DNA of 64,000 nt, from NCBI GenBank assembly GCA_903908595.1, contig CAIVSN010000116.1:454-64453 (forward strand), given 5' to 3'. Shown here in pieces: positions 1,910-52,578 of the stretch (position 1 is the first letter of the stretch; each line of letters starts with the position of its first letter). The stretch comes from an uncultured bacterium. GTDB taxonomy: Bacteria > Patescibacteriota > Gracilibacteria > BD1-5 > UBA2023. A model generated the notes under the pieces. The model searched no databases and was not told the DNA's origin. It was given only the letters and a program-made list of their open reading frames with translations. Both the position numbers and the translations under genes were made by a program.

Positions 1910-2419
1910 ATGGCCCGGCTTTCATTCTTCCCTATGTCCGACAACGTCTATTACCTCTCCCCGCGTTCCAGGCTCGACGATGTCGACCGGGATATGGTCG
2001 AGCTCGAAATCGCGTCCCTCGCGTCCCACCGCCAACTGGAATCTTCCCGAGAGCGGGTCGGAAAAATCATCGGGGCGGACTATATGTTCGCGCTGCTCGA
2101 ATACCTTTTTTCCGGAAAACCCGCGTTTCCGAAGGGATTCGACCCCACGGGCACGCCCTTCCCCTACCCGTACCGGCACCATCTCGACCTGATGGAGGGA
2201 CGGGAATTGGAAATTTTTTCCCGGACGATTTCCATGATTATGAAAAGGGCCTACGATCGTTCGGGCCGTTCGAGGAAGGAATTGTTCTTTTTGCGAACGG
2301 AAGTGATGCGGCGGCTCGCGATATTCCGGGGCGAGGATTCCGGAAATACCGAAAGGCCGGAATTCGTGGGAGAACCGGGGAAGGGAGGTCCATCGGGACT
2401 CCGTATCGTACATACCTAA
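1910..2419 (+). CDS. Hypothetical protein (169 aa)
   Basis: Track ORF with an ATG start, a TAA stop and non-repetitive composition. No family recognised. Confidence 0.5.
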   Translation: MARLSFFPMSDNVYYLSPRSRLDDVDRDMVELEIASLASHRQLESSRERVGKIIGADYMFALLEYLFSGKPAFPKGFDPTGTPFPYPYRHHLDLMEGRELEIFSRTISMIMKRAYDRSGRSRKELFFLRTEVMRRLAIFRGEDSGNTERPEFVGEPGKGGPSGLRIVHT

Positions 2420-2466
2420 CCAAAATTGGTTTTCGGTATTTCACAGGTACAGATTTGGAATAGATT

Positions 2467-2874
2467 TTATTTTTCTTCTTTCGGGAGCTTATCGGGAATA
2501 ATTGCAGGAAGGCTTTCATTGCTTTTTTCGATAATGATGTACGCGCTTCCGATGTTTCCCGCGGCGTCTTTGGCCGTGACGACGATCGGGGTGAACTGCC
2601 CCTCGAGGGCTCTCATTCCGGCTCATTCGACGACGATGAGTTCCGGGGAAGTTTTGTCGTCCGTGACCCGGACTTGGACGTCGATGGCATCTCCCGAAAC
2701 GACCTGATCGTTCCGGTAGTTCACGAATTCGATAGTCGGAGCCGTCACGTCGGGCTTCGGTTTGGCATATTTCCGGACGGACGTATACCGGTTGTCGGCG
2801 GAGATTTCGGACATTCACCAAAAGCAGAGCCCGGTCACCAACGCTATCGACACGAGTATGTTGAAATTTCTCAT
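2467..2874 (-). CDS. Small secreted/anchored protein (135 aa)
   Basis: Track ORF 2623-2814 extends across TGA 2815-2817 up to ATG 2872-2874 (MRNFNILVSIALVTGLCFW, signal-like). It also extends across TGA 2623-2625 down to TAA 2467-2469. The start lies 3 nt after the upstream gene's stop. The last ~11 codons lie inside a family-B repeat fragment. Confidence 0.55.
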
Positions 2875-2877
2875 ACG

Positions 2878-4269
2878 TTAGAATTTTTCGTGGTAAATAT
2901 GCTCGAATCCCCGGGATTTGAGCGCTTTGACGCTCGATTCCACCAATTGCGGATTCCCGCAGACATAGAACTCGCAACCCTCGGGGAAATCCAATTTCGT
3001 CACGTCGATCCTCCCCGTCTCAAAACCGGCGGCGGTTTCGCGGGAGAGGTACGTGACCGTTTTGAGGTTCGGAATTTTTGCGAGCCGGTCGGCATAGAAG
3101 CGGCTTTCGGAATCCCGCACGCCGAAGAGGAGGATCTTTTCGGTTTCCGGAATATGCGACATCATATTGACGATTGGCGCGAGCCCGGTGCCGGTAGCGA
3201 TGAACGCCTTCTTGGAATCGGTAGGCCGCAGGACGAAAGAACCGGAGACGTTTTCGATTCGCAGCGTATCCCCGACTTTCAATTTTTTCAGCGCGTTGCC
3301 TCCTCTCCCTTCGGAAATCCTAATGCAGAAGGTCAGCTTCGACCGATCGGAATCCACGACGGAATACGGGCGGACGAACGTGCCGTCCCGATCCGAGAGC
3401 ACCACCCGGGCGTATTGTCACGGGATGACCACGAACGGCGTGGCCGTTTCCACCACGAGTTCCATGGTCGTGGAATTCAGCATGGCAATCTGCCGCACCG
3501 GAGCGTCTACCGGCTCCCGGTCGTCGGCCGGCTCGGAAACGGGCACGAAATCCCTTTTGGATACCCCGCAGACCGGGCACGCCCAATCGTCCGGGATGTC
3601 CTCGAACTTCGTCCCCGGCGCGATGCCGCCGTCCGGATCCCCGAGTCGTTCGTCGTAGACGTACCCGCATGGCACGCAGAGGTATTTGGTAACGGGTTTT
3701 CCCAATGGGTTCGCTTGCCCCTTCCGGGAAGCGTCCTTGCGGAAAAATGCCACGGTCCGGAAAAATATCACGGCGCCGATAATCGCCATATACCATTCGT
3801 CGAACCTCGAAGCGAAGGCGATATGGAGCGCCGCCATGAGGAAGAGCGGGTACGCGAGGGTTTGGATTTTTTTCCAAAAACCTTTCAGCAACCGCACGGA
3901 AACATCGTTGGAAGTGACGCCGAGCAGGAAAATTATCACAAATGCCACCGTCCCCGAAGCAACGTCCAGTTCCAAGAAATGTTCCAGGACGAAGAAGGTT
4001 TTCTGGTATGCGTATTCCGCGTAGAAATATACCGCCATATGCCCGATCGCGAGCAAAAAGGCAAAAATCCCGAACGTTCTCCGATACGGCGCCCAACCGG
4101 GGCGTTCGGTCAGGGCGATGATCGGGGTGACCGACATCGCGAGGGCGAGATACAGGAAAGAAACCCTCCCAAAATCCCGAAGCAGCAGGTTCGCGGTTCA
4201 TGGGTTCATCGCGTAGAACGTGACAAAAAGGACGGCTCCGGGAACAAGGGAAAGCAGGTATCGGGTCAT
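2878..4269 (-). CDS. Fusion protein: ferric-reductase-like transmembrane domain + rubredoxin + FNR-type FAD/NAD(P)-binding oxidoreductase (NOX/FRE-like architecture)
   Basis: Same-frame track ORFs 3418-4137 and 2878-3405 are joined by TGA 3418-3420, and extend upstream across TGA 4198-4200 to ATG 4267-4269. TM part: [11 protein letters not shown]...LHIAF. Rubredoxin knuckles: CVPCGYVY...WACPVCG. FNR motifs: RPYSV, GTGLAP, CGNP. Ends in TAA. Confidence 0.8.
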
Positions 4270-4305
4270 GGAAAAAAATGAGGTCGGTTACCGTATTATG
4301 ATGCT

Positions 4306-4400
4306 GAGGTTTGCCTTGGGAAGTCAGTTTACTTTCGAGGCAGAGGTTTGCCTTCCTTGGAAGTCAACTCGCCTTCTAGTCTGAGGCTTGCTTGGAAACG
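4306..4400. repeat. Three imperfect direct repeats, GAGG(T/C)TTGC..TTGG(G)AA, in the intergenic region upstream of the ferric-reductase fusion gene
   Basis: gaggtttgccttgggaagtca (4306-4326), gaggtttgccttccttggaagtca (4343-4366) and gaggcttgcttggaaacg (4384-4400), spaced roughly 37-41 nt apart. Confidence 0.5.
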
Positions 4401-5384
4401 CTAGCTCGCCTTCGAAGTGGTATCGACTTTTGGAACGTACGGGGCTTGCACGGGAGTTTTCGCGGCAGCTTGGGCTTTTGCCTGGGCTACGGCGGCGGCT
4501 TGGGCCCGCGCCCGTTCTTGCTCTTGCCGGATCGCGGCCGAATTGTCGGCCGGCGCGGCGGCTTGGGCTGGCGCGGCGGCTTGGGCTGGCACGGCGGCTT
4601 GGGCTGGCACGGCGGCTTGGGCCGGCGCGGCGGTTTGGGCTGGTGCCGTCTTGGTGTCGTTCGCGGCGGGAGCCTTGGGGGATTTCGCCAGGGCCGGGAC
4701 GGATTTCCTCGGCTTCTTGACCATGACGGGAGGCTCGTACTTGTTATTTATGTCGATGTAGGCGACCAAGGATTCCTTGGTGGGGAAAAACGCGGTTGAG
4801 AGCGTGCCGTTCGGCCTGCGGTACATGTAGGAATCCCTGGTCCGATTGTCCACGATACCGTAGGCCTTCCCGTTCGGGGCGACATAGTCCCCCAATTCCC
4901 TGATATCCGGATTGTTTTCCCTCAGCATAAGCAACAGCGCTTCGTAGTCCTTGAATTTTTTCGAAGAAAACGTCCCGTCGGGCCTCTCAAAAATGTACGC
5001 GCCGCCGTACAGCCGGTGGATGACGTAGGTTTTCCCGTTCGGAACGACGAATTCCACGGGAACGTTAGCTTCCGGAGGCAGGGGCAAAACGACCGTTCCC
5101 GAAGCGGAAACCGGCGTCGTGCCCGCGGGATCGCTTGCCGGCGACGGAGCTGGCACGGGTACCTGCGTAAATTGATATTCGCCATAATCGTCATCCGCAT
5201 CCTCATGTTCGTCTTCATCCTCGTCGTCTTCATCGCTGTCCGCGTGGGCTACCATTACCAACGGCTTGACATTCCAAAAATTCCCGGCCACTTCCTTTTC
5301 TTTCAGGGAAACGATTCCGAAAAAAGAAACGCCCCAAAGCAGGAAAATACTCCCGATTACCACGATTCGCAAAGAAGTTTTCAT
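4401..5384 (-). CDS. Secreted/anchored protein with an acidic stretch and a C-terminal (PAQAAx)n Ala/Pro-rich tail
   Basis: Intact track ORF of 327 aa. It has an N-terminal hydrophobic anchor (MKTSLRIVVIGSIFLLWGVSFFGIV), a DSDEDDEDEDEHEDADDD run and five 18-nt tandem repeats. Ends in TAG. Confidence 0.7.
   Translation of the reverse strand: MKTSLRIVVIGSIFLLWGVSFFGIVSLKEKEVAGNFWNVKPLVMVAHADSDEDDEDEDEHEDADDDYGEYQFTQVPVPAPSPASDPAGTTPVSASGTVVLPLPPEANVPVEFVVPNGKTYVIHRLYGGAYIFERPDGTFSSKKFKDYEALLLMLRENNPDIRELGDYVAPNGKAYGIVDNRTRDSYMYRRPNGTLSTAFFPTKESLVAYIDINNKYEPPVMVKKPRKSVPALAKSPKAPAANDTKTAPAQTAAPAQAAVPAQAAVPAQAAAPAQAAAPADNSAAIRQEQERARAQAAAVAQAKAQAAAKTPVQAPYVPKVDTTSKAS
4552..4642. repeat. About five tandem 18-nt units inside the CDS, encoding PAQAA(A/V)
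   Basis: gcNcggcggcttgggcNg is repeated head-to-tail and can be read directly in the sequence. Confidence 0.85.
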
Positions 5385-5446
5385 AAAATGATTGAAATAA
5401 CGGGATGCAACGGATGAAATTATACGAATGGAATCCTAATAGAAAA

Positions 5447-6361: not shown

Positions 6362-6424
6362 ATGACAAAAAATAATTCGGGGCGATTGTACGGAGACGAT
6401 ATTAAGGAAGCCTTCGGAAATGAA

Positions 6425-10476: not shown

Positions 10477-10608
10477 AGGGAAAAAATTATGGATAGGCGT
10501 CTGGGGCGGCGAAGCGTCCTCACGGGGGTATACGGAAAGCCATGGAATATTTATTCAGAAAGTTGTAAAAATGCCTCTGGGAAATTCCGGAACCCCGGAA
10601 AAACGATG

Positions 10609-10774
10609 TATACCCAACGGGAATTGGTTTTCGGTATTTTACGGTCATAGATTCGGAACAGGTTTCATTTTTCTTCTTTCGGGAGCTTATCGGCAATAAG
10701 TGACCGAAGAAAAAAATGAAAGATGTCCGAATATGTGACTGGAAAAACCGGGAAACCAATTCCCGTTGGGTATA
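10609..10774. repeat. Family-B element, full-length copy. It is a 166-bp imperfect palindrome with 22-bp termini TATACCCAACGGGAATTGGTTT.
   Basis: The left arm and the reverse complement of the right arm align over the whole length. The centre is catttttcttctttcgg...ccgaagaaaaaaatg. Intergenic. Confidence 0.8.
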
Positions 10775-10871
10775 ATCCGAAGCCGAATTCAAGCACCGCG
10801 GTGAGACGTACTGGGGTACGGTGGACGAGGAACGGAGAAACGGACGAGGAATTCGCGTTTTCCCGGGATCC

Positions 10872-11570
10872 CTAGAATCCCCTGCCGGATCCCTGTCCGA
10901 ACCATGGCATAACCTTGTCCGCGTCGAAGGCATCCGAAGCGACCGCCGTTCCGGAAATCCGGACTTTCGCTCACGTTTCCGTCTTTGCCATTTTCCCGAT
11001 GTGGGCACCGGAAATATCGATTTTCCACAGGTTTCCGTCCAGATCCCGAAGGGAAATGCCCTCGGGACCGACGCCCTGGATCGTACCGGAGAGCCGCCCG
11101 TTCTCGGGCTCGTTCCACGAGGATTCCCGGTACACGATATCGGCCAGGAACGGGATATTTCCGGCGACGTAGGAATGGACCGCCGGTCCCAATCCCGTAC
11201 CCCGGAACGCCACCGCGGCCAGGAGCACCGCGATCCCCCAGACGATCGCGTTCCGGAAAACGTCGTACCGGTACCCGACCGCGGTTTTGCGGAATCCGAA
11301 CAACCCAATAGCCATGAGGCCCGCGAGGAATATCCCCCAGAAAACCGGCGGGAAAAACAGGAGCTGGCCGCCGTTGCCACCTCGCCCGAACCGGAAGAAA
11401 TCCAGGGAGTCGTCGATGAAAAACACCCCGAAAACCGTGGAAAACGCCAAAACGGAAACGATGCCCGCCCACAAAAACCATCGCTGATTGCGGAAATGCG
11501 ATTTCGGGACCGGCACGATGTGCTCGTCGCGGATTTTCGAGAGGATGCTGGTTTTGAGCGGGGTGTTCAT
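10872..11570 (-). CDS. Putative anti-sigma factor / membrane protein cotranscribed with the ECF sigma factor
   Basis: Begins at ATG 11568-11570 (MNTPLKTSILSKIRDEH...), 11 nt after the sigma gene's stop. Has three to four TM helices. Reads through TGA 10971-10973 to TAG 10872-10874. Confidence 0.6.
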
Positions 11571-14203: not shown

Positions 14204-14246
14204 AAAAACTGCCTTTTTAAAAAAACGAGTTGGCGAATAGCGATGT

Positions 14247-14471
14247 TTGGTGCACCCAGCTGGGCTCGCCCGTTGGGCCGCCCGGGGCCGGAGTCCAAAC
14301 CGTTGGACTCCTCGATGCTCCGCATCGCCCCGCGTTCTCGCCGGGGGTTTTGATTATTTTGGTGCACCCAGCTGGGCTCGCCCGTTGGGCCGCCCGGGGC
14401 CGGAGTCCAAACCGTTGGACTCCTCGATGCTCCGCATCGCCCCGCGTTCTCGCCGGGGGTTTTGATTATTT
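14247..14471. repeat. Two tandem 112/113-bp units immediately 3' of tRNA-Arg. Each ends with a 21-nt copy of the tRNA 3' end.
   Basis: ggtgcacccagctgggctcg starts at 14248, 14360 and 14473, and the third occurrence is the tRNA itself. Each unit also contains the hairpins cgatgc-gga-gcatcg and ggagtcc-N8-ggactcc. Confidence 0.9.
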
Positions 14472-14549
14472 TGGTGCACCCAGCTGGGCTCGAACCAGCG
14501 GCCTCAGCCTTCGGAGGGCTGCGCTCTAATCCAACTGAGCTATGGGTGC
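14472..14549 (-). tRNA. tRNA-Arg (anticodon CCG), CCA encoded
   Basis: Minus strand reads GCACCCATAGCTCAGTTGGATTAGAGCGCAGCCCTCCGAAGGCTGAGGCCGCTGGTTCGAGCCCAGCTGGGTGCACCA. The cloverleaf folds, and the anticodon loop is CTCCGAA. Confidence 0.9.
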
Positions 14550-14689
14550 ATGGCGGCATGATATCTAAAACGTCGGATTTTTCAAATTCGATATACGAGG
14601 TTTTTTTCGGATTCCGCGCGGTTACAATTCTTACAGTGCAACTGACAGTCATGGACATTGTTATTGCCACGGAAGCGCAATCGCCTACG

Positions 14690-14811
14690 GAGACTTCTGC
14701 AAAATGATGAAATCCGAAGTCAATTTCGAGCACTGCAGTGAGGCGTACTGGCAAGTACGTCGAACGAGGAGCGGAAAAATTGACAAGGAGTTCGCATTTT
14801 GCAGAAGTCTC
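14690..14811. repeat. Family-A palindromic element, copy 1
   Basis: Termini gagacttctgcaaaatg / cattttgcagaagtctc. Conserved core gatgaaatccgaag...gaggcgtacTGGCAAgtacg...caaggagttcgc. The right end abuts the ATP-grasp gene's stop codon. Confidence 0.85.
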
Positions 14812-15794
14812 TACGGATCGAATATCAGCTTCAGCATTTCCCGTCCGGTATTCACGCCCGTAAGTTCCCGGTCTCACCCGAGGCCCGGGGTGGCGTTCAC
14901 TTCGAGGATTATTCCCCCGGTTTCTTTCAGGGGCTTGGAAAAATCGGTAGACAGGATATCGATTCCGCAGATTCCCAGTCCGAATTTTTCCGCGATTTCG
15001 ATACACGTTTGCCGGGTTTCGGGATGCAGCAATGGGGTAATGTCCCGGGCGGTGCCCCCGGTTCACAGATTCGAGTTTCATCGCAGCCGGAGGCAGGCTC
15101 AATCGGGCAAAACGCTTTCGGGAGAATATCCCTGCTTGCCGATGAAATCCCGGAGTTCCCCGTCGATCGGGATCAGGGAAAGCGGCGCTTCGTATCCGTT
15201 TCCCCGGAGCGAATTGCTTTCGTTTTCGTACCGGATCAGCGCTTCGACGGTCGATTTCCCGTCGCCGGTCACCGCCGGGGGAATCCTTTGTAGCCCGAGC
15301 AATACCTTTCCGAGCACTACCAAAACCCGACATTCGTCTCAGGCGACCTGCTCCTGTACGATCATCCGGGGGTATTCCTCCAAAGACGCCGTCAGTTTTT
15401 CCGTCAATTCCCGAACGTCCCGCAAGCCCATTTTCACGCCATTGCCATGGGCTCCGTCGACCGGCTTGACGATTACGGGAAAAACGAAGTCGGCAAAGTC
15501 CTCAGGCCCGAAGCCTTCGGACAGCCGTTTGGCATCGACGTAGCAAGTGCGGGGAATGGGAAAACCATATTTGGAAAGCATAGCATACGACAATTCCTTA
15601 TCGTCCGCGATATTTTTTCACAAGGCGGAATTCGCTCAAAAATCGGTGCTTTTGAACGTCACGGATTTCCGGGGCGATCGCACGATGAAAAAATTTTTTT
15701 CGGGAATGACCACTTCGACGGTGAGTCCGAGATTTTCCGCTTCTTCTTGGAGAACCTGGGAGGAAATCGACCAATAGGTCATGAAGTCGGTCAT
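14811..15794 (-). CDS. ATP-grasp ligase resembling the cyanophycin-synthetase N-terminal domain / RimK family
   Basis: Same-frame track ORFs 15636-15848, 15339-15593 and 15099-15323 are joined by 7 in-frame TGAs. Ends in TAG 14811-14813. Blocks: PVIVKPVDGAHGNGV, RIPPAVTGDGKSTVEALI, NL[G]TGGTARDIT, GICGIDIL, GGIILEVNATPGL. Confidence 0.75.
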
Positions 15795-15860
15795 AATTGG
15801 AAAAATTAGGGAGTCCCATGCGAAATGATGAAATGAAATCTGTCTCAAACAGCGGGATCC

Positions 15861-16898
15861 CTATTGGGCATAACAGCTTGCCACCGAGTCGAGCCATTCC
15901 TTCGCGAAATACCGTTCTTCCGGTTCGCACAGATATCCGGTCATGATGTTGTTCTCCGTGAAATAGTATTTTCCGTCCTTTCCCACGAGGATGTCCAACC
16001 CTCCGTGAAACTCGGGAACGATTTGGCAATAGCGGAGGATTTTCAGCTGGACATCCTCGGGAATGACGCTCAGATCCAATCGTCTCAACGTGTTTCATTT
16101 CGCGATATTGTGGAGTACCTGTCATTCTTGCCGCTCTTTCCCGTGCACTTCGAGAAGTTTGGGACTTCATCCTGCCATTTTTGCCCAATATACCCGGTAT
16201 TCCGTATCGGAAACGTCGAGCAGCTCCATGATGACGTAATCCCCGCCGCAAGCCTGGGACACGAACGAACGGAGCCCGTCTTCGAAACCGGTTTCCGCGA
16301 CCCCGAATATCCGTATCCCCTCCCCGGAAGAAAATCCCGCGTTCTTCGCGATCGCCGATTCGCCGAACCGGCCGGATTCCCGTATGAATTTCACCAAGTA
16401 GGAGAAATCGCCTTCGTCGCAGACATACGGCACGACGCATCGGGGAAAATTCTCGCCATCCGCATAGGCAAGCGCGTGGCACTTCGAAGAAAGCGGGGTA
16501 TTCTCCGGATTTTCGAGATTCGTCACCACCCGGATGTCCCACCGCAATTTCGCGCTTTTCACCAAGAAAGCGAGGAACGATTTCGGCAGGCCTCCGGTCC
16601 TGTGGAGATATACGGTACTCCCCGGGGGGATTATGGAAAAATTCCCGTTTTCGTCGATCCCGAACAGGCCATCCTGCGATACGAAAATATTCCCCGAGAG
16701 GATGTGTCACATTTCGGATCGATCCCGGAGGAGTTGGGAAAATACGTATATGACGTCCACTCAACTGTCCCCGACGGAAAAATATGCCTTCGAGTTCTCC
16801 GCGAATCGGGAAACGTTTTCGAAGGAAAATCCCCCGTACGACTCCGAAACCCGTTTCAATTCGGAAACGGAAAACGAGGTAAAACAATATTTTTTCAT
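15861..16898 (-). CDS. Second ATP-grasp-like protein (345 aa)
   Basis: Same-frame track ORFs 16761-17093 (from the internal ATG 16896-16898), 16167-16565 and 15861-16088 are joined by in-frame TGAs at 16761, 16707, 16167, 16122 and 16095. The C-terminal FHGGLDILVGKDGKYYFTENN resembles an ATP-grasp C-domain. Ends in TAG. Confidence 0.55.
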
Positions 16899-16942
16899 AC
16901 TCCCTGGGGGTGAGGATACGGCATTGCGACGGCATTTTTCTC

Positions 16943-16962
16943 CCGATTTTTCGAAAAATCGG
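16943..16962. promoter_or_regulatory. Perfect 20-bp palindrome CCGATTTTTCGAAAAATCGG upstream of the ATP-grasp pair (candidate operator)
   Basis: The sequence is its own reverse complement. It lies about 45 nt upstream of ATG 16898. Confidence 0.4.
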
Positions 16963-17261
16963 AACTTTGGAGCGATTCGGATACGCACGTTATGATTTCC
17001 CATCGTATGGGATTTCTTGAAAAAGTCAAAGCCGGCCCCGATTCCGCGCGTAGCCGGCCGGATGCATTTTGCGAATCGCTGGAAATATCCCATGAGCCAG
17101 GCTCAAAAAGAGATACTTGGGAAATAATGGGGCACGAAAAACGTCATAGGGTCGTACTTACGGCCCAACCCTATCGTGGAAACCAAAAATTTCCGAGATT
17201 TTTCCGTGATTTTCGTAAGGGAATCGGTAGCGTGTTCCCCTATCCATTACCCCAATCCACC

Positions 17262-17669
17262 ATGAAACTCCTTACCAAACGCATCCTCGAACAATTCCGG
17301 AAAATATGAAACCAGTCGGAAAACCCCGATCCCCTCGTCATCTGCAAATTCTTCAACCCGGCCGGGGCGGGCACGTGGTACGCCTCGGAATTCGACGAGG
17401 AAAGCGGGATATTCTTCGGGTACGTCTCCATTTTCGGGGATTGGAACGACGAATGGGGGAATTTTGCCCTTTCGGACCTCGAATCGTTCCGCGGAAAGTT
17501 CGGGCTCGGAATCGAACGGGACATCCACTTCGAGCCGGAGCGGTTTTCGGAATTGGGAATCGACCGCCAAACCGAGGAGGCGGATGCGGAGCCGTATGCG
17601 ATTGGGCAAATCGCCTATCCATCGACCGGGGAAATCATTGCGACGGCCGTGCCTTCCACGGCGGCGTAA
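17262..17669 (+). CDS. DUF2958 family protein
   Basis: MKLLTKRILEQFRKI[TGA=G]NQSENPDPLVICKFFNPAGAGTWYASEFDEESGIFFGYV...LSDLESFRGKFGLGIERDIHF matches my recollection of DUF2958. Ends in TAA 17667-17669. Confidence 0.7.
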
Positions 17670-17677: not shown

Positions 17678-17712
17678 TATACCCAATAGGAATTGGTTTC
17701 CTATTGGGTATA
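17678..17712. repeat. Family-B minimal hairpin (15-bp perfect stem, loop ttggt)
   Basis: tatacccaataggaa-ttggt-ttcctattgggtata, located between convergent genes. Confidence 0.85.
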
Positions 17713-21066: not shown

Positions 21067-21094
21067 CTTGCAAACCCCGGCATATATGATACTA
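21067..21094 (+). promoter_or_regulatory. Candidate promoter of the giant gene (TTGCAA-N16-TACTAT with an extended -10 TG)
   Basis: -35 TTGCAA 21067-21072 and -10 TACTAT 21089-21094, with TG at 21086-21087. It lies about 30 nt upstream of ATG 21125. Confidence 0.45.
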
Positions 21095-21124
21095 TGGCCC
21101 CTAGAAAGATATCCGATCCCTTCC

Positions 21125-24100
21125 ATGTCCGTATTTCCCAAACCAAGCAGGCTCAAAAAATGGGTTTCCTCACTCCTCATTTTTACCATGTTCGCGAGCC
21201 AGACGGTGCAATTCCCGTTGCTGGTTCCCAGGATCTTCGCGGAAGGCAGCGACGTTCCGAATTTGGTATCGATCATCGTCAGCGAGTCCGTCTTTACTGG
21301 CAACACGAAGGACAAAATTTCCCAATATTCCAAGGATATCCAGGCTTCGATGACCAATACCCGGGTCGTCATCGTGAACGTGCCCGACAACATCGCCCCG
21401 CACAGCATCGCGGCGCTCAATGAAAAACTCTACTACGAAGGCGACGGCGACGGGATTTCCCGGCTCGTGGGGACCGTCCTGATCGGGAAACTCCCGATTC
21501 CCGTGGTCCACAACGGAAGCAAGAGCTTTCTCAGCATCTATCCGTATACCGACTTCGACGAAAAGGTCTTCATGTTCGACGTGGAGAAGGGCTACTACGA
21601 GGCTGGAAGCGGACCCGTGGAGCATGACAGCCCAGAAATCTGGCACGGGGTCATCCAGCCGAATTCCGGGGATTCCGCCACCGACCGGGCCAAACTCGAA
21701 CAGTACCTCGACAAGACGCACGATTTCTATGCGAAGCAGGGGGTGTTCGCCAACATGAGCCAGACGCCCTACGTTTTCTATCTCGACATCACCCACGACC
21801 AGGAAGCCGCGAGCGCTTCCAATTGGAAGGCGTACAACCTCGGCCTCGAATACCTGGAAGATCTTACCTACAAGCGCTTCAACAAGCACCTGGCCAAAAC
21901 GCTGTACGACAAGTTCCAGGGCATGCAGGATTCCACGGCGGATCTGACTTCCGAGGAAAAAGCCGAGCTCGGGGCCGCTGGGGTGGACATTCCGCCGATG
22001 GCCGATTCCATGGATTTTTCCAGTTCCCCGGACATCCAGACCCGCACCGCCATCACCGAGGTAACGAAGCAGTTCTTCGAGATTTTCAACGAAAAATACC
22101 TCGGGGACATCCTCAAGTTCATCTACAACACGGGAAGATACGGCGACGGGAGGGATACCCGGGCCGATATCGCTCCGGTACTGGTATCCAAGCGCGACGA
22201 ATTCATGAAGCGGGTCATTAAGGACAGCAATACCGCGCTCGAAAACAGCATCGACCAGCTCGTGAAATCCGGCCTCGCGATCGATCTGGCCATTCCGACC
22301 GACGTCAAAATCACCAAAACCGGCTCGGGCGCTGACGCCAACAACCCCGTTCCGCCGATATACCGCAATTACTATTATGGGAAATTGGCGAGTTCCATTA
22401 CCAACGCGAAGGAGTGCTCCATCGTCCGGGGTTCTACGCTCCCGGTCGAAGCGAACCGGGGATACAATATCCTCAACGTCGAGCCGGATTTGCAGAAGCT
22501 TACCCAATATTCGACGCTGTGCTTCCCCGGAGGGCTTCCCGCGACGATGGACTGGTGGGGCGGCAACAGCCCGCTCAACGTGAAGACCGATTCGTTCACG
22601 GCGGCGGATTTGGCGATCTTGCAAAGCGCGACGGGCGGAACGGACCTCTCCGCCTACGAAGGCAAGCTCTCCACCAAGTTCGAGCTCAAGGGCAACGTCT
22701 ATAAGGATTACGTCATCCAGACCTTCGATCTCCTGGGGCAAAGCGAAATCTCGCGTACCGGAGCGCTCCGCGTCAATTCCCCGTCGGATTGTCTCGCCTC
22801 GAACTATATCGCGGATCCGTTCGTCGGAAAATCCGAGGATGGGATGTCATTTTCCCAATTCCAGCATCCGCAGACTACGGGGGGGACGCAGTTCGTCTGC
22901 GTGATGCGGGACAGCAAGGGGGTGCTCGGCCACAAGTTTTTCGTGCAATCCAGCACGACCCTTTTCGCGGACGCCATCGCCGACCGGATCAACCCGCCCC
23001 TCTGTACCGTCGTCAAAGTCAATCTGGTGGGAGGTTTTTCCAAGCAGTTCGGACGGCTGTGCGATGAAGAAGTACCGGTGGCGACCACGGGAAACGGAAC
23101 GGGAGAATCCTCCGGAACGGAAACGGTGACGACCGGGACGACCGAGGAGTACGACTTCAAAAAGATATCTTCCTGGATCGTCCACAAATCCCCCACGGAC
23201 GAAGAATACGGGGCCGCCGTCAAAGGCATGACCACTCCTTCCCTCGCGAGCGACGGGGACCGCTACATCGACTTCATGGGCCCTGCGGGAACCGTCCAAA
23301 AAATCGTCTATCCGAATTTTTTCCGGCTGAACAACCAGTCCTACGAGGCCGCGTTGGCAACGGCAGGAACCTGAGGCAGCACGTTTTTTGGCGATCTCGT
23401 GACCGTCGTGGACCACTCCCTCGCCTCGGCCGGCTGAGGCACCGTGGCCAACACTGGGGCCAGCCTGCTTTCCGGCAATATGCCCGACCTGACCATCGAT
23501 ATGGTCAAAGATTCCATCAAGGCGGTCCTCGATAAGAAAAGCGCCGAAATCAACGCCATTATCAACGCGCAGGATCCGGCGCTCCTCACCGGGGATCAGG
23601 CCGCGATCTACCAGCTCATGAATACCGGCGCCTATCCGGCCGCCAACGTCGATCTCTATACGATGGTCGCGAGCAGCGGGAACATGCTCACGACCCTGGC
23701 GGATACCATCCTCTGGTACAACCGCACCAACGCGACGAGCAAGTATTCGTTCATCCTCGAGAATTACCTCGACCGCGACGGGAACCGGGACTACCCGCTT
23801 TCCGGGCACCATTCCGATTATGAAATGGGATACATCGGCGGACCCGGCGACGCGCAGAACATGTACGTCAAGGTCGACCCAGAATCCAAAGGCACCCTGT
23901 CGAAAGACATTACCGACATCCAGGCCGACTACGGTTCCCTCGTAAACCTGCTGGACGCCGCGAACGTCGCCGAGTACAGTCCCGAAGATTCCCAATTCAA
24001 GTGCGGGCCGCCGGAGGGCGTGGTCATTTGGAAATGGCTTCCTGCCGTCTTCTGCTGGCTCGGGACGATTCTCCCGCCGACCATTTCGGCCGGATCCTGC

Positions 24101-30100: not shown

Positions 30101-33100
30101 GGCCGCGGAAGCATGATTATTCCGAACGGTCCCCTGCTCTCCATCTGAGGCCGGGGCGGAAGCGGAGCCGGCAGCTTCGAGCTGGCCATCGATCTCAAGA
30201 GCATCAAGAACTTCGATATCGGCATCATCACCAAAATCAGCAACCAGCGGGTTTCCGCGTTCCCGGATTTCATCATGGACTGGGTCAACCGCCAATTGGA
30301 AGAAGTCGCCAACAAACTCACGAGCCTCCCGACGCTGTATATCATCAAGCCGGATTTCCGAGGCGTCATCGACGGCAACTGGAACGGGTTCACGGAGAAG
30401 CTCGGGAAAGCCTACGGTACCGGAAAGAAAAACGGCAGTCCGGTACTCGGCAACGAAAACGCCGGCCGGAGCATTTCCGGCGTCAAGTCAGCCTACGAAT
30501 TCATGTCCCGGCTCCCCCTTATCAAATTCGAGAAAACGACCCTGGACATCTCCTATCCGGACATCGGCCAGGAAGACCTCAACAAGGCCCTCAAGAATCT
30601 CAAGAATACCAAGGCCCAATGGGAGCGGGAGATTTCGAGCAAGAAAGCCCTGTACGCGGGCACGTTGACCGCTACCGGCATGGACGCGAGCATTATCGTC
30701 CGGTCGGAATGACTTATCAGCAGCATCAACCAGAACATCCGAACGATAGAGGAATACAAGAAATTCCCGGAAAAACTCGCGAAGTACCTTACCTGGAAGG
30801 AACGGTATGCGGCGCAATTGCTCTGCAATATCACGGCAATCCAAAACATGCTGGACAGTTTCATTACCAAGAATGCCATCCGCTTCAAGGCCTGGGTCGA
30901 GTTCTTCGAACTGCTCAAGAACATCCTCAAGGGCTGGCAGCTCATCCCGGACCTCTTCTACAAGAACGAGGCCGAATGCGGGGTGTGCCGCAACGAGCGC
31001 TACGACGCGAAGCATTTCATGTTCAAGCTCATCAAGGCCATCATACCGCCGCTTCCGATCATCAAGTTCCCGAAGTGGCCGGACATCATCTTGGACCTCC
31101 ACAACGTTCGGCTCGGCCTCCGCATCGCCATGCCGGAATTCGTGTTCCACCCGACCCCGATCGTCCTTCCGAGATTCCCGAATCTCGCGTTGCCGACGCT
31201 TCCGAAACTGGGCATCGGTTTGCCGAGCATTCCGACGCTTCCGAGCCTGCCGCCGTTACCGGAATTGCCGGATATTCCGTCGCTTCCGCTCATCACCCTT
31301 CCGGAACTCCCGCCGCCGCCGACCATCCCGAAGCTCTTCGGAGCCATCAAATTCACGTTGAACATCCTCAAGATCATCGCGAAGGTCCTCTGTATCATGC
31401 GTTCGAATCCGTTCGTGCCGGAATGGCGCGCCGGAGACCAGATTGCCCAGATTACGGAACGGCAGGGCAAAATGAAGCTCGACTTCCTCAATATCGAATT
31501 CCCGCAGTTCAACGCGAGCTTCGTCGATGCCATCAAGGTGACGACCTACGTGAATTTCGAGTTCCAGATCGACTTCCTCCTCGAAATGGCCAAAGCCACG
31601 TTCGAACCGATCAACGCGTTCACCTCGAACCTCTCGAACATCGTTCCGAACGCGACCAAGGACATCCTTCCGAACAAAGTGGACCTCCGCGGGCTCAATC
31701 CGGGCAACCAGAAAATCCAAATCGGTCCGACCGGAATGGAAGGCAAAAACCCGTTCGTCAAGCAATACGCCCAAACGTTGGCCCAAGCATTCGTTACGAC
31801 GATCAAGCAAGGACAATTCTACGCGAACGAATCGGCGGCCTACGAGGAAATACGGGAGAATCTCGCCGACGAGCTCGCCCATACCCACGCGACCCCGGGA
31901 ACCCCGGGATTCGCCATCCTCGAAGAAATGCGGGAAGGACTCCGGATTCGCGGCGATGCCGAAGCCGAAGCCCTCGCGACCGAACTCCGAAGGGACAACG
32001 ACGAAAAGTTCAACCTCGCGAACGGTTTCGTCAAATCGGAGATGCACGAAATCACGGAACTCCAGGCCCAACTCCACCTCGTGCAAACCGGCAAGAAGGA
32101 CCTCTCGGATATTTTCGGGACCCGGAAAAGCGGGGGAAATGCCGAATTGACGGATTCCGCGAACCCGTACAGCACCGAATCGGAACTTCCAGATTTCACC
32201 AAATTCAACGAACGGGCCTACGTCGCCTATTCCGAACTCCTCGCACCGAAGCCGGACGACGAACTCGTGACCATGGGAAAAAATCTCAAGGACAGCATGC
32301 AAGCCTATTCCGCGGAAGCCGAGAGGAAGTCCGCCGAATACTGAGCCGGAACTGACATTGCCGGCGGAGGCGAACTCGCGAATTACGAATACCGCGGCAT
32401 TTATACCAAGGACAACGGTCGGCAGATCCGGCTCTTCGATTACACCAACGACCTCATGGGAGACGAGAGAGCCGTCCAGGTCGACCGGCTCGGAAACGGG
32501 GCGATAGAATATATCTACCTGAGCGGGGACGGATTGTATCTCAAGACCAAACTGGGGAATTCCGGAACCTCGGCGACGAGCGGAAGCGCTTCCACGGGCG
32601 GAACCGGTTTCTTCGACGAACTCGGCACCGTCGTGGACAATTCCCTGTCCATGGCTACGGGAGGAACTCCGACTGCCAACACCGGAGGTGGGACTTCGGG
32701 CAGCGTCACGACCAGCATTCCCGTCTACCGGCTTTCCGGCATCATCGATCTTCCGAATTCCGAAACGTTGCGGCCGACCGCGCCGAACCGTTTCGTGGAA
32801 AGATTCGTGGCTTCCGGGGAAATCAACTTCTCGTTCCGGCCGGCCGACTTGGTCAACGACACGATTTTTCGAATGGAATTCTACGATTATATCGATCGCT
32901 TCGACCTGCGGATGAGTGGGAAAGACTGGAAGGATATCGCGCCGACCACCCGGGTTTCCTACGTGGATCTCGTCCCGGAATTCACGGGCGAAACCGTGAC
33001 GGACGCTTCCAATACCGGCATCATCCTCCAAAAACCCTATGCGAAATACTTACAGGGAACCGGGAACGGATTCATCAGCGGGGCGGACTACCGCACCCTC

Positions 33101-34630
33101 TGAGCCGGCTCGAAGATTCAGGTTGCCGCGAGCAAATCGATCTATGCTGACGGAGGCGGAGCGAAAATCGCGTACAAAATCGCCGACAGCGCGGCTTCCG
33201 TTACGGGCAGCACGGTGACCATACCGAATTCCGGAGAACTCAAATTCTTGGACAACATGGACATGGAAGTCCTGAACGGAAACGTCATCCTCATTAACGA
33301 GAGTTCGAGCCCCGTACGGCGGCCACAGGATTTTCAGAAACTGAACGGGCTTCCCGTCATCCTGGGTCAGAAAATAGAAATTCCCGCGACGACGGCCCGG
33401 CTCAATATCGAGTATTACAACGGCGCATCGCTCCGCATGGACGGGCCGAGCCTCTATGAAAGCCACGAGCTCGGAGCGAAATCCGACGAATATGACGTGT
33501 CGCTCCGCCAGGATAACGGCTGGTACTACGCCAGGCTCGAAAGCGTTTCGCCGAGCCCCCGGACCAGTACGCGGATCACGCTGCTTTCGCCACAAATGGA
33601 AGCCGACAAGGAAGCTCCGCTCATCGAGGTCGCGGGAGGATTCCGGGCGCCGGTCTATCTCGACCGTGCCATAGACTTACGCGAACAGATTACGGACGTT
33701 TCCGGCATCAGCGACGTGTTTATCGACACGGATCTCGCGGCCGATTCCGACCGGGATGGGCAAATGGACAACGACCGGGATTCCGACGCGGCCGGATCGA
33801 TATTCAGAAAGGGCAGCTCCAATCTCGAATGGATCGTCAAAGCCCAGGATCGACTGTTCGAGAAGAAAATCAAAATCTGGGCCGGGGACGAAAGCGGAAA
33901 TTTGGCAGGAACAGAGACGGATCTCCGCATCTATGCCCCGGTTCCGAATATTTCGACCCAATCGGGAACCACGATTTTCGGAAACCTCGACGAGTCGTTG
34001 GACGGCGAACCGACGGATATCGTCCGGTACCGCAACGGCAAGATTTCCCCTATCGGCAACGCGGCGCTTACCCAGAGCGGCGGGGAATTCCTCAATACCT
34101 TCGGCACGAATACCGGAATAGCCATCAGATGACCGTCGGGCGAATTGGCAAAAATCAACGAAAACACCGGAAAACTCACCCTGAGCGGCAGCGAGAACGA
34201 ATTCGTCGTCCTCCCGGCCAACGCCGACGTCCCGATGCGGATCGAAATCCAGAAGAAATCGGATCATTCCGTCCTCTACTCGCAATCCGTAGCACTGGGA
34301 AGCGCCGGGAAGATAGAACCCGTGTCCAGCCTCGCGGAAGCTCTCGCCAAAGCGAAATGAGGCCTCGGCGTACGTCTCGATGCCGGATGGAATTTCGTCC
34401 GGAACCCGGGCAATAGCCCGTCGCTTCCAGGAGGCATATTCGTCACGGACGCGGACATGAAACCGGTGTTCGGTATCGCCAAGGATGGCAACGTATACTT
34501 CCTGAAATCCTCTGGACTCAGCCTGAAATACGGAACCGAACAGGACTACTTCGTCATCGAAGTCCGCGACGCGGACCATCTCGTCGGAACCCTCTATTAC
34601 GTACTCGATGCCGAATATGTCATCAAATAG
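21125..34630 (+). CDS. Giant secreted surface protein (~4,500 aa) with FG-GAP/VCBS-like, Ig-like and DUF11/CARDB-like segments and a Pro-rich region
   Basis: Nine frame-2 track ORFs (21068-23374, 23444-27208, 27302-28300, 28733-29956, 30275-30712, 30818-32344, 32456-33103, 33215-34132, 34145-34360) are separated only by 12 in-frame TGAs. The first TAA/TAG in frame is TAG 34628-34630. Signal-like MSVFPKPSRLKKWVSSLLIFTMFASQ. FG-GAP-like GDFNGDGYGDLVMVDQDGKL and DMDKDGKTDIVISDDSGEL. Pro-rich LPSLPPLPELPDIPSLP. Confidence 0.85.
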
Positions 34631-37480: not shown

Positions 37481-37598
37481 AACCCCGGCAAAACGCGAAC
37501 TCCTTGTCAAATTCTGCTTCCTCGCTCAACGTACCTATCGGTACGCCTCGCTACGGTACTCGAATTTGGCTTCGGATTTCATCGTTTTGACGGGGTTC
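37481..37598. repeat. Family-A palindromic element, copy 2 (inverted orientation)
   Basis: Termini gaaccccggcaaaacg / cgttttgacggggttc. The central hairpin is cgtacC-GATA-Ggtacg on the reverse strand. Confidence 0.85.
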
Positions 37599-37628
37599 TG
37601 GGGTTTTTGCAAAATATTTCTGTCAGAC

Positions 37629-39881: not shown

Positions 39882-39903
39882 GAAGTTTCCATTTTATACC
39901 CAA

Positions 39904-40028
39904 CGGGAATCTCGTTAAAAACGCGAACTCCTTGTCAAATTCTCCGCTCCTCGTTCAACGTACTATCGTACGCCTCACTACGGTGCTCAAATTTGACTTC
40001 GGATTTCATCGTTTTAACGGGATTCCCG
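39904..40028. repeat. Family-A palindromic element, copy 3 (inverted orientation), abutting a family-B half-site (39895-39910)
   Basis: Termini cgggaatctcgttaaaaacg / cgttttaacgggattcccg. The central hairpin is cgtac-GATA-gtacg. It overlaps the stop codon of the methylase gene. Confidence 0.85.
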
Positions 40029-43466: not shown

Positions 43467-43514
43467 AGGAAAAAAATAAAAAACATCTTTCCCATATCCG
43501 AACGAATGCCTCTT

Positions 43515-43633
43515 GAGACCCTGGAAAAATGATGAAATTCGAAGTCAATTTCGAGTACCGAAGGGAGGCGTACGAGAGTACGCCCGCAAGGAACGGAAAA
43601 ATTGACGAGAAGTTCGCATTTTTCCAGGGTCTC
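43515..43633. repeat. Family-A palindromic element, copy 4, in the pnp leader
   Basis: Perfect 17-nt termini gagaccctggaaaaatg / catttttccagggtctc. The central hairpin is cgtac-GAGA-gtacg. Confidence 0.85.
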
Positions 43634-43723
43634 TCTCGGCTTGCGACGACGGCACGAACCGCCGACGCAAGCAAAGAGGCTACGCTGGGTTTGGGAGATA
43701 GCCAGAGTATACGGGAAAAACCG

Positions 43724-46778: not shown

Positions 46779-46823
46779 TATACCTAACCGAATCTATGGC
46801 CATAAAATACCGAAAACCAAATT
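46779..46823. repeat. Family-B arm fragment (inverted)
   Basis: The reverse complement, aatttggttttcggtattttatggccatagattcggttaggtata, aligns to the left arm of the 10609-10774 copy. Confidence 0.65.
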
Positions 46824-46825
46824 CG

Positions 46826-46991
46826 CTTAGTCTCTAAGCAAAAATAAGTTGCAACTTTGCCGCGTATGCATGAGGTATCAGGCAAGGCGACTCTTACGCA
46901 GTGGAGCGGGCTCCACAAGTATGAGGCAACGATGGCTGATATCTTATGCATACGATGGGAAAGTGTAAGTTATTTTTGCTTAGAGACTTAG
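46826..46991. ncRNA. Rod-like structured element of ~165 nt. It is either a candidate ncRNA or a palindromic mobile element.
   Basis: A 22-bp closing stem (cttagtctctaagcaaaaataa / ttatttttgcttagagacttag), a 19-bp inner stem with two G-U pairs (cgtatgcatgaggtatcag / ctgatatcttatgcatacg), and an apical hairpin gtggag-cgg-ctccac. Confidence 0.4.
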
Positions 46992-47134
46992 GTATATTTT
47001 TGGAATTTGGGGAAAGTGACAATGCAACCATGGGAATGACACGCTCAAAATCGAATTTGACAATCGCGATACGGTCCATATATTGCGGACGGCTCAACCA
47101 AAATCAGTTGGAGGCCGCAAAATAGGAGTATACC

Positions 47135-47485: not shown

Positions 47486-47519
47486 AATCTTCCCCGGGAA
47501 ACCCCCGTGGAAACCCCCA

Positions 47520-48437: not shown

Positions 48438-48449
48438 TCCAAATCGAAC

Positions 48450-49007: not shown

Positions 49008-49021
49008 CCGGGGAGTTTTTT
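48994..49021. terminator. Bidirectional terminator between convergent genes
   Basis: aaaaactcccc-taacc-ggggagttttt. The PAP2 stop codon lies in the loop. Confidence 0.6.
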
Positions 49022-49039
49022 ACTGGCTGGCAATTCCAA

Positions 49040-49918: not shown

Positions 49919-50132
49919 AAAAAAAAGTTAAAGGTAAAAAAGTATTAAAAAAAGATATTTCTTTTTTTGTACCGCGGTAGTATATATACATTTTTTGAAT
50001 ATTCCAAAAGATTATGCATAAGGGGGAATTAAGCGTCAAGGGAAAATCGGTTTCCTTAAGAAAAAATATTGTTTTTCCGGTAAAATAAAACGTTGGGAAC
50101 CGTCGTGAAAAAATGGTTTCGAATGGGAAATG

Positions 50133-52439
50133 TTAGGAAGCGGAATCCGAGGAAGGATCGTATTCTCCGCACCAAATAGAGTTTCTTCCATGTTCTTTCG
50201 CCTGGTACATGGCATCGTCGGCCTGCTTCAATATATCGTCGGCATGCGTCTCGTCCCCATCGAATACCGCTATTCCGATGCTTCCCGTACACCGGTGATT
50301 GACGTGGATTTTTTCCCGTTTTTCGTTCGTTATGGAGAGCGAATATTCCTCGCCGAGCGAACTGAGAATTTTTTCGGCGACGTTTTTTGCCAATACGGAA
50401 GAATCTCCTGGATCAAGATTCAATTCGTTCAACAGGATGGCGAATTCGTCTCCTCCGAAACGCGCGACCGTATCGGTTTCCCGAACGCAATCCTTCATGC
50501 GGTTCGCGGCCTCTATCAGGAGGAGATCCCCGAATTTATGGCCGAATTGGTCGTTCAGCGGCTTGAAATTGTCGAGGTCGATGAACAGGACCGCGCCAAA
50601 CGACCGGCTCCGTTTATGGCTGATCATGGACAGTTGCAGGCGCTCGAAGAACAGCCTCCGGTTCGGCAGATTCGTCAGCCCGTCGTGGAACGCCATCCGG
50701 AGCACCTTGTCCTGAAGCTCCTTCCGGTCGGTGATATCGGTAATGAAGCCGTGCCAGATGGTCGAACCATCCGCTTCCCTCTCCGGAGCTGCATCGCCAA
50801 AAAGCCACCTTACGGTCCCATCGTCGAATTTTATTCGATACTCGTGTTTCCAGAGCGACAGGTTTACGGCAGAAGCATTGATGGAAGCGACAACCCCGCT
50901 ATAGTCCTCGGGGTGCAAATTGGTGAATACCTTGGAAGCATCGTTCTTTACCTCGTCGGGAGAAACCCGGTAAATCGCGAAGATGGCCTCGCTCGCGAAC
51001 GGAAAACACGACGTGCCATCCGGCCGAAGCCGGAACTGGTATACGAGACCGGGAACGCGGCTCGCGATTTTGAGCAACAGATCGAGCGTGTTTTTCCGGT
51101 CGGAAATATCGGTATGGGTACCGAACATCATGAGGGGTTTCCCGTCGGGAGTCCTCGTGATAACCTTTCCGTGATCGCGCACCCAGATCCAGCGTCAATC
51201 CCGATGCTTCATCCGGCAATCGAAATCGTAATACGGGAGCTCACCGGAAAAATGCCGTTCGAGCAACGCTCACGATTCTTTCAAATCGTCAGGATGGGCC
51301 AATTCTCACCAGGTCTTGATGCTGATGGGCTGGAGTTCGTCGAGCGTATATCCGACGATTCGAGCCCACGTTTCATTGAAGATCGTCTCGCCGGTCTGAA
51401 CGTTCCATTCCCAAGTGGCCGCGTCTGTGCCTTCGATGATATTCTCGAACCTCCAAGAGATATTCCGAAGCTTTTCCTGGATGATTTTCTGTTCGGTGAT
51501 ATCCTGTCATTCCGGCAACAGATACATGACCAGCCCATTTTCGTCGAAAACCGGGGAGAGGCTGAAGTCGATGAAGTGCCGGGTTCATTCGATATCCAGG
51601 TGAATGACTTCTTTCCTGACGAATTTCCCGTTTTTCGCTTCCCGAATTGCCTCGATCAGCGTTTTTTGGGCATCGGGAGAATATGACCACCATACACCTT
51701 CCCAGAAGGGCTTCCCCACGATTGCTCCGATGTCGGTCCCGATGAAATCCAACGAGGTCCTATTGGCTTCTATGACGATGCCGTCCGGATCCAGCAGTCC
51801 GATGAACTCGCGGGAAAGGTTGAAAATGGCTCGGTACCTTTTCTCGCTTTCCACCAGGTTCCTTTCCAAGAGTTTTCGCTCCGTGATATCGTGGATGACC
51901 GAGAAGAGGATTTTGCTCCGGTTGAATTCGATGGGGGAAGAATGGACTTCGACCAATCGTTCTTCCCCGCTTGCCAACTTGTGGGGAAAATGGAAATAAT
52001 TCCGATGATCGCTGACGGCGTTGACCAGTTCAGTTCTGATTTGTCCATCGGATAGCATGTTGAGTTCCCGGATGTTTTTTGCCCGGAGATCGTTTTTTGA
52101 ATATCCATAGAATTCCGCGGCGGCATCGTTGGCATCGAGTATGGCACCGGTAGGGGGATCGACCAATAGCATGATGGCGCTGTGTCGACCGAACAGGTTA
52201 CGAAAATCCCCCCTTACTTCCAACGGCAGTTCCGGTATCTCGGCCTTCTCGACCGGTTTTCCCCTACCGCCATCGGGAGTCCCGACGATCGCTTCGGCGC
52301 TCAGAGAAATGGCCTCCTGCAAGGCTTGGACTCCGTATTCCCGGATCATCCGGGCCAATTCCAACCCGTCGGCCGTCGAAAAGGATTTCGGAGGGGTCTG
52401 CGAAATCGTCGAAGAATGCACCAATGGAAGAACGCTCAT
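50133..52439 (-). CDS. Multi-PAS sensor diguanylate cyclase (GGDEF)
   Basis: Same-frame track ORFs 51585-52439 and 50133-51182 are joined across 5 in-frame TGAs. PAS blocks are followed by [14 protein letters not shown]...[11 protein letters not shown]...[14 protein letters not shown]. Ends in TAA. Confidence 0.85.
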
Positions 52440-52543
52440 TTTATCTGGAGGGTATTATCGAGTTACGATCGCGATGAACGTTCATAATGAACATTTCAAT
52501 AAAAAAGTCAACTAATATTGGCCTCATGCGTTCGTTGCGATTT

Positions 52544-52578
52544 TATACCCAACGGGAATTGGTTTCCTGTTGGGTATA
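52544..52578. repeat. Family-B minimal hairpin
   Basis: tatacccaacgggaa-ttggt-ttcctgttgggtata. Contains one G-T pair and covaries with the 17678 copy. Confidence 0.85.

Follow-up and report, generated by a model that had tools for sequence, protein, structure and literature searches.

Introduction

How does one pair of inverted termini come to delimit a palindrome of 166 bp at one place, hairpins of only 35 nt at others, and fragments elsewhere? The question is raised by a 64,000-nt stretch of DNA from an uncultured bacterium of the Gracilibacteria type (positions 454-64453 of contig C116 in an assembly of 2,408,911 bp and 186 contigs; hereafter the window) and by the repeat that we call family B. 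A preliminary description of this stretch had recognized full, minimal and fragment forms, and had likened the mixture to excision footprints or to a modular repetitive extragenic palindromic (REP)-type system, possibly with a REP-associated tyrosine transposase (RAYT), that interacts with a second palindromic repeat, family A. All of these forms are present at the coordinates originally assigned to them (Table 1). The evidence presented here makes it very probable that family B consists of transposable elements of the miniature inverted-repeat kind (MITEs), of the IS630/Tc1-mariner type, and that the short hairpins were left by internal deletion of these elements.

Family B is an abundant, non-coding repeat of 166 bp

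The full-length copy of the window (10609-10774) is an imperfect palindrome with perfect 22-nt inverted termini, TATACCCAACGGGAATTGGTTT. This 22-mer occurs four times in the window while none is expected from shuffled versions of the window. The predicted fold of the copy as RNA is a rod (−91.9 kcal/mol, z = −12.9).

Throughout the genome the terminus was matched 330 times when up to four mismatches were allowed. Convergent pairs of termini 130-220 bp apart number 87, and in 67 of these the distance is exactly 166 bp. A profile built from the 166-bp copies recovered 240 non-overlapping pieces. Of these, 110 are full copies, 41 are truncated at a contig end and 89 are internal partial pieces; their summed length is 29.2 kb or 1.2% of the assembly. 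This abundance bears out the proposal that the pieces in the window belong to one repeat family of shared origin. Pairwise identity of the full copies has a median of 90% and a maximum of 99.4%, with a median of 96% to the nearest neighbour, and most positions of the interior are at least 90% conserved. Four of the six reading frames contain stops even in genetic code 25 and the two open frames extend over at most 55 codons; the element is small, non-coding and too short for a transposase. In our coarse code-25 gene model spurious open reading frames (ORFs) cross these two open frames, and the model was used only for the orientation test described below.

The termini are those of an IS630-family insertion sequence

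Some of the matched termini run on into sequence other than the interior of the MITE. The inverted termini of family B also bound an insertion sequence (IS) of 1359 bp (C168:11223-12581) with one intact ORF of 342 aa. Its product matches the IS630 family transposase model NF033545 with 179.4 bits (cut-off 100, E = 1e-52) and PF13358 (DDE_3) with 109.9 bits (cut-off 28.6, E = 1e-31). It also matches three helix-turn-helix (HTH) families, with two HTH domains in its N-terminal part, and the catalytic residues, read from the sequence by inspection, have DD34E spacing. The left end of the IS reads TATACCCAACGGGAATTGGTTTCCCGGTTTTCG…, and over 31-34 nt the IS ends are identical to one arm of the MITE. 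A right end with a 34-nt match to the CCCGG arm of the MITE is found at three contig ends and the left end at three further ones. With end fragments on six contig ends, the IS itself must be multicopy and collapsed in the assembly, where a single complete copy is present. The MITE, dispersed and multicopy, far outnumbers this parent (about one complete and a few collapsed copies), and its interior has no evident similarity to the IS.

Since the MITE amounts to the IS ends placed on a non-coding, almost fully palindromic body, it should depend on the IS transposase. This enzyme would recognize the terminal repeats that IS and MITE have in common (TATACCCA … GGTTTCCCGGTTTT), excise the element and insert it at a TA dinucleotide that becomes duplicated. 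The comparison of the ends thus points to the IS630 transposase as the probable agent that mobilizes the MITE.

The transposase ORF contains no in-frame TGA, though the host reads TGA as a sense codon, while distant IS630 homologues of related genomes hold three to eight in-frame TGA codons. A homologue in a Runella metagenome-assembled genome (MAG) is 53% identical. The IS may have arrived recently from a donor that uses the standard code.

Insertion duplicates TA, often within other palindromic repeats

TA is present at both ends in 95 of the 110 full copies. Seven copies are nested in family A. When the flanks of any of them are joined by one TA, the resulting sequence can be aligned gaplessly to family A copies that carry no insertion, so that an insertion adds the element and exactly 2 bp; the empty sites in this comparison are paralogous family A copies, not allelic sites. 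The full copy of the window behaves in the same way, its flanks joined with a single TA giving a gapless alignment to family A copies. Three of the seven are independent insertions, carrying different terminus variants, into the same apical TA of family A (TGGCAAG-TA-CG). Uninterrupted family A copies with the same or a closely similar apex are numerous, the exact form TGGCAAGTA occurring 19 times. ISY100, a member of the IS630 family, inserts almost exclusively at TA with duplication of the dinucleotide; its 5' cuts are made 2 nt inside the element, the donor once rejoined has the sequence TATATA, and about 24 bp per end are sufficient (PMC2170065).

The suggested interaction with family A holds in the sense that the two repeats are physically entangled, but what is seen is nested insertion into family A TA sites. 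These contacts, like those with the window's rod-like element (see below), come from the nesting of mobile elements, and the apical TAs of palindromic repeats are reused. Family A itself is a palindromic repeat of about 130 nt with about 250 pieces in the genome; its core is conserved while the outer arms vary between copies yet remain complementary within a copy. Yet another palindromic repeat, the fourth, measures about 170 bp, has the centre …GTGGTTC-TA-AATGAATTT… and is found at C103:12386-12554, C179:1-152 and C62:7946-8023. At C122:3075 one paralogue has a longer family B copy in its central TA, and at C62:7911 another has a 35-nt form there.

Most short forms have their junction at a direct repeat common to the two arms

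Short forms fall into discrete size classes (Table 1), and the 23 genuine 35-nt forms share one architecture. In the two that lie in the window, the first 15 nt of each end make up a 15-bp stem with the loop TTGGT. Folded as single-stranded DNA, they reach −13.4 (17678-17712) and −12.8 kcal/mol (52544-52578), with z about −7.4. At positions 10-11 both sides of the stem vary between the two, which read CAATAGG/CCTATTG and CAACGGG/CCTGTTG, respectively, with a G-T pair in the latter; these compensatory differences are exactly those that had been claimed.

The junction coincides with a direct repeat of both arms in the 35-, 28- and 24-nt classes, in two of the three 17-nt copies and in one of the two 42-nt copies. 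Such direct repeats are available in both arms because each terminal inverted repeat (TIR) contains small internal palindromes. The terminus variants CGG, CAG and TAG are common to the short forms and the full copies, and a 17-nt remnant (C136:583-599) occupies the family A hot-spot TA that elsewhere holds full copies. As the element is a long hairpin, its copies can be expected to decay in place: sequence would be lost between short direct repeats at symmetrical places of the two arms, leaving nested remnants that keep both tips, and the cause would be strand slippage while the hairpin is replicated or a gap repair that is interrupted once the element has been excised. Slippage on a palindrome yields deletions between symmetrically placed short direct repeats, and interrupted gap repair gives the same deletions. 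Judging from the junctions, hairpin-promoted slippage or abortive gap repair is the probable origin of the short forms.

The earlier comparison with excision footprints is only loosely borne out, in that abortive repair after excision may have contributed. The short forms keep 8-27 nt of each end, unlike the footprint of a few bases that a transposase leaves; they are too long for a TATATA footprint, and their microhomology junctions fit slippage equally well. The hot spot in family A showed no junction of the TATATA type, the footprint expected for a transposase of this family.

Table 1. Family B, its derivatives and associated features. Positions refer to the window unless a contig is named; junction contexts are written with the CCCGG arm of the full element first.
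Feature	Position	Strand	Remarks
Left-half fragment, older subfamily	2412..2511	+	terminus ATACCTAACCAAAATTGG; profile positions 2-99
Family A copy split by the MITE (context; not family B)	10581..10873, ends approximate	+	
Full-length MITE copy (TA + element + TA), 166 bp	10609..10774	+	CGG/CGG terminus type; inside family A copy
35-nt internally deleted derivative	17678..17712	+	TAG…CTA type; perfect 15-bp stem
16-nt exact terminus fragment TATACCCAACGGGAAT	39895..39910	+	adjoins family A copy
Older-subfamily copy, internally deleted	46781..46830	-	terminus TATACCTAAC, then inverted left arm 46787-46830 (profile positions 6-49)
Rod-like palindromic element, third repeat family (context)	46831..46987	.	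inserted in the old copy
Other terminus of the same old family B copy	46988..46997	-	CTTAGGTATA
35-nt internally deleted derivative	52544..52578	+	CGG…CTG type; one G-T pair
Family A copies in the window	14683-14812, 43508-43634, 62344-62475, 37490-37606, 39918-40025		
IS630 transposase ORF	C168:11259-12284 (L001 1057-2085)	-	342 aa
Short forms, 42 nt	2 copies		junction repeat CGGGAA (one of two copies)
Short forms, 35 nt	23 copies		junction repeat TTCCCG; left …TTGGT[TTCCCG]GTTT…, right …CCAA[TTCCCG]TTGGGTATA
Short forms, 28 nt (older subfamily)	5 copies		junction repeat TTTGGTT
Short forms, 24 nt	9 copies		junction repeat CCAAT / CCAA; left TATAC[CCAAT]AGG…, right …AA[CCAAT]TCC…
Short forms, 17 nt	3 copies		junction repeat GGG (two of three copies)

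A variable triplet in the terminal repeat is matched between the two ends

Variability within the element peaks at TIR positions 10 and 11, where 50% and 40% of the bases, respectively, depart from the consensus. The two ends carry the same dinucleotide in 74 of 109 copies where 25 are expected, the matched classes being TAG/TAG (27 copies), CGG/CGG (22), CAG/CAG (6) and AAG/AAG (4). Rare variants of the arms behave differently: 73 are one-sided versus two that are two-sided, both of the latter being matched singletons at positions 11 and 12. General gene conversion from arm to arm in full copies was considered and rejected on this ratio. Deep subfamilies were likewise rejected as the cause of the matching. 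The interiors diverge by 7.6% within a terminus class and by 8.0% between classes, a tiny difference (p = 0.001) that also fits a star-like burst from a few masters. Such a burst fits the interiors and leaves the origin of the masters' matched ends unaccounted for.

In the complete IS copy (C168) the triplets of the two ends differ, being CGG and CAC, which argues against a strict need for identical ends. In a related IS from a Candidatus Gracilibacteria MAG, with a transposase fragment of 82% protein identity over residues 260-341, TATACCCA and GTTTCCCGGTTT are kept while positions 9-18 are of unrelated sequence. This suggests that the central part of the TIR is a spacer free to vary. The TTG variant makes a perfect tandem, AATTGGAATTGG, and a T at position 10 extends the local CCAAT/ATTGG inverted repeat; variants of this kind could be templated by neighbouring sequence and so recur in both arms.

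Other family B sequences and neighbouring genes in the window

The left-half fragment at 2412-2511 matches the corresponding half of the full copy (10610-10709) with 82% identity. The older subfamily to which it belongs (terminus …CCTAACCAAA…) also occurs in a genome of the same genus, G001. The last 11 codons and the stop (…IPDKLPKEEK*) of CDS 2467-2874 (minus strand) come from this fragment when code 25 is used, in agreement with the preliminary description. The product is a predicted small secreted protein of 135 aa, which has no paralogue in the genome.

The last seven nucleotides of the terminus fragment at 39895-39910 double as the outer arm of the family A copy that adjoins it. An inverted arm fused to the rod-like element had been described at 46779-46823. 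The arm is there, but it is part of one older, internally deleted family B copy (46781-46997) whose arm was split by the insertion of the rod-like element, with CTTAG on either side of the latter. This third repeat (TCTCTAAGCAAAAATAAGTTGC…) has related junctions at C18:4300-4335 and C51:16399-16464, and the corresponding site without the element reads GCTTAG-AGA-CTTAGG elsewhere, which looks like a footprint of the rod-like element or a deletion between GCTTAG repeats.

The hairpin at 17678-17712 begins 9 nt past the stop of ORF 15825-17669, which encodes a DUF2958 protein, and that at 52544-52578 lies between the genes for a PGA_cap protein (52639-54432, minus strand) and a GGDEF protein (50133-52439, minus strand). 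A search for intrinsic terminators (a G+C-rich hairpin followed by a run of T) reported neither 35-nt hairpin, their tails being AGTCCCGG and TTTGAAAA, and a comparison of the window with Rfam at the gathering score matched three tRNAs and nothing else. Directly next to a tRNA gene (14475-14549, minus strand) lies a perfect tandem duplication of a 112-nt unit (14246-14469, 100% identity), which may be genuine or may have arisen in assembly.

Host genome and distribution of the family

The host recodes UGA. The PAS-GGDEF protein encoded at 50133-52439 is continuous across five TGA codons when UGA is read as sense, and the genome encodes a tRNA with the anticodon UCA beside tRNA-Trp(CCA). In code 25, a single ORF of 4520 aa and 13.5 kb (21068-34630) is also found, with 12 in-frame TGA codons and internal repeats of about 65 nt. 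At 2.4 Mb the assembly is large compared with the roughly 0.8-1.6 Mb of the listed relatives of the genus, family and order. Nearly all tRNA species are single-copy, which argues that it represents one genome. Repeats of five or more copies occupy at least 5% of the assembly.

The MITE was found in one of five genomes of the same genus, G001, with four copies of 86-91% identity and no transposase there, and it was absent from 35 other relatives searched in the family and order. A scan of the contigs of other genomes for the exact terminus gave no match; G001 uses other terminus variants. Two of the G001 copies are at places that carry no copy in the genome of the window. The genes flanking them are 68-79% identical and the intergenic DNA is too diverged to locate the insertion points. 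Transposases of the IS630 type (E <= 1e-20) are present in 7 of the 201 genomes of the order, the present genome included.

Discussion

The shared termini, the duplication of TA and the size, non-coding nature and copy number of the 166-bp element place family B with MITEs of the IS630/Tc1-mariner type, and the junctions of the short forms mark these as internally deleted remnants. We hold this interpretation with considerable confidence, and several observations nevertheless weigh against it. Movement of family B is a deduction. No two full copies are identical, the best pair reaching 99.4%, which makes recent activity no more than possible, although identical copies would break a short-read assembly; with 41 copies at contig ends, the set of full copies probably contains too few of the youngest, most similar ones. 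In four of the seven nested insertions the consensus of family A at the target reads AA, TG, TT or GA instead of TA. The particular copies that served as targets must therefore have carried TA variants, and such variants do exist (2 of 149 copies at site 1). The agreement of TIR positions 10-12 between the arms is not explained by the model. Finally, TATG…CATA is two-sided in six of the seven 35-nt forms that carry TATG, compared with 3 of 22 full copies, an excess that simple deletion in place does not predict. It possibly stems from an older, mostly decayed two-sided subfamily, from correction of quasi-palindromes in short hairpins, or from copying of the short forms.

That last possibility leads to a reading in which the short hairpins (35, 24 nt etc.) are themselves the propagating units, as ultra-small MITEs mobilized by the IS630 transposase or copied in some other way. 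The 23 forms of identical architecture at unrelated loci would speak for it, as would the states shared by subgroups, with six 35-nt forms carrying TATG…CATA at both ends and six being TAG…CCG, an arm combination seen in 3 of the 110 full copies. The arms of the 35-nt forms also agree, with 25 mismatches compared with 46 in shuffled arm pairs and none of 5000 shuffles as low. In addition, one 35-nt form occupies the apical TA of another palindromic repeat whose paralogue holds a longer family B copy. Against this, the 35-nt form retains no more than 15 nt of the TIR at one of its ends, where the conserved inner box GTTTCCCGG is missing, whereas ISY100 needs about 24 bp per end (PMC2170065), which makes continued mobility unlikely. 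A 35-bp duplex would also not be long enough for its two ends to be brought together within a single synaptic complex. Microhomology junctions are found in nearly every size class, as deletions predict. Identical 35-nt sequences are expected from independent events because they are made of conserved TIR positions, and the excess of TAG…CCG is not significant among parents that offer the TTCCCG repeat (9:6 in the short forms against 22:3 in the parents, Fisher p about 0.06). We therefore consider propagation of the short hairpins unlikely and think that they probably no longer move. A related idea is that positions 10-12 are rewritten in concert, because one end templates the other or because synapsis needs identical ends, and that the 35- and 24-nt hairpins are the smallest self-propagating derivatives of a DDE element; to this reading we would give a low probability.

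Two further readings were considered. The stability of the predicted hairpins might suggest that family B is kept for a function, as terminators, mRNA stabilizers or structured small RNAs, with the covariation of the arms reflecting selection on structure. The plus-strand RNA of the full copy in the window folds 16.5 kcal/mol better than the minus strand, the arms agree at positions 10-12, and one fragment gives a gene its C-terminus and stop codon. However, the consensus forms five G-U pairs on one strand and two on the other, which is not a meaningful asymmetry, and relative to co-directional flanking genes eight copies have the same and 12 the opposite orientation (p = 0.5, with crude gene calls); selection at the RNA level, considered from the folding asymmetry, thus finds no support. 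Neither 35-nt form of the window scores as an intrinsic terminator, and the 73 one-sided rare variants to two two-sided ones exclude a general selection or correction for pairing. A functional role of this kind is highly improbable. The REP-type system, for its part, would account for palindromic units of about 35 nt with larger composite forms, a high copy number and a mostly intergenic position. It would require a RAYT gene, and PF01797 (Y1_Tnp) found no match in the whole genome, which is 98.65% complete, while 6 of 14 control genomes were matched. The termini of family B are identical to those of an IS630 element of the DDE type, insertion duplicates TA, and the full element, 166 bp long and with an interior that is conserved, unique and not palindrome-specific, is no REP doublet. 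The absence of PF01797, the DDE-type ends and the TA duplication together lead us to reject the REP/RAYT reading, to which we attach next to no probability.

An IS630-mobilized MITE family with extensive decay products is of a known kind, a conclusion that is well supported; only the matched hypervariable triplet might hide something new. Members of the IS630 family such as IS630 and ISY100/ISTcSa combine a DDE transposase with an N-terminal HTH (NF033545, PF13358) in an IS of about 1.3 kb with TIRs of 25-30 bp and insert into TA with its duplication, as the present IS does. IS630-derived bacterial MITEs and the eukaryotic Stowaway-type (Tc1/mariner) elements are likewise short non-coding derivatives that retain only the IS ends and far outnumber the IS. 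Family B differs from them in that its body is an almost complete palindrome of 166 bp, in that the middle of its TIR varies (positions 9-18 between related ISs and 10-12 among copies of the MITE), and in its host, a UGA-recoding genome of the Gracilibacteria type within the Candidate Phyla Radiation (CPR). Our literature search on MITEs in Gracilibacteria or CPR found no relevant report.

The Correia elements of Neisseria (CREE/NEMIS) and the enterobacterial ERIC/IRU MITEs are 100-170 bp long, have TA-flanked TATA… termini and reach high copy numbers. They can form long hairpins in transcripts, fall into size classes, some full and some internally deleted, and can provide the ends of genes. 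Family B has no sequence relationship to them and differs also in that its cognate transposase gene can be identified in the same genome. The likeness to REP/REPIN-RAYT systems lies in the presence of short, abundant palindromic hairpins beside larger composite forms; in contrast, family B is without a RAYT gene, has DDE ends and a TA duplication, and its short forms derive from the long one and not the reverse. Internally deleted transposons arising by abortive gap repair, and deletions by palindrome-stimulated slippage, share with family B the retention of the termini, the loss of the interior, junctions at repeats of 3-7 nt and recurrent sizes. The series in family B, from 166 down to 17 nt, is unusually deep, and the two mechanisms are inseparable by sequence alone.

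For the genome concerned, family B explains more than 200 repeat pieces and much of the fragmentation of the assembly, with 41 copies at contig ends. The apparent modular REP system disappears, and the hairpins beside genes would here be debris of a transposon and not regulatory RNAs. What emerges is a UGA-recoding bacterium of the CPR type whose assembly is unusually large and which harbours an IS630 element together with several MITE-like families that are nested. The TGA-free ORF of the transposase is directly expressible in E. coli, and the graded series of 166, 42, 35, 28, 24 and 17 nt provides a natural record of how a palindromic transposon is eroded.

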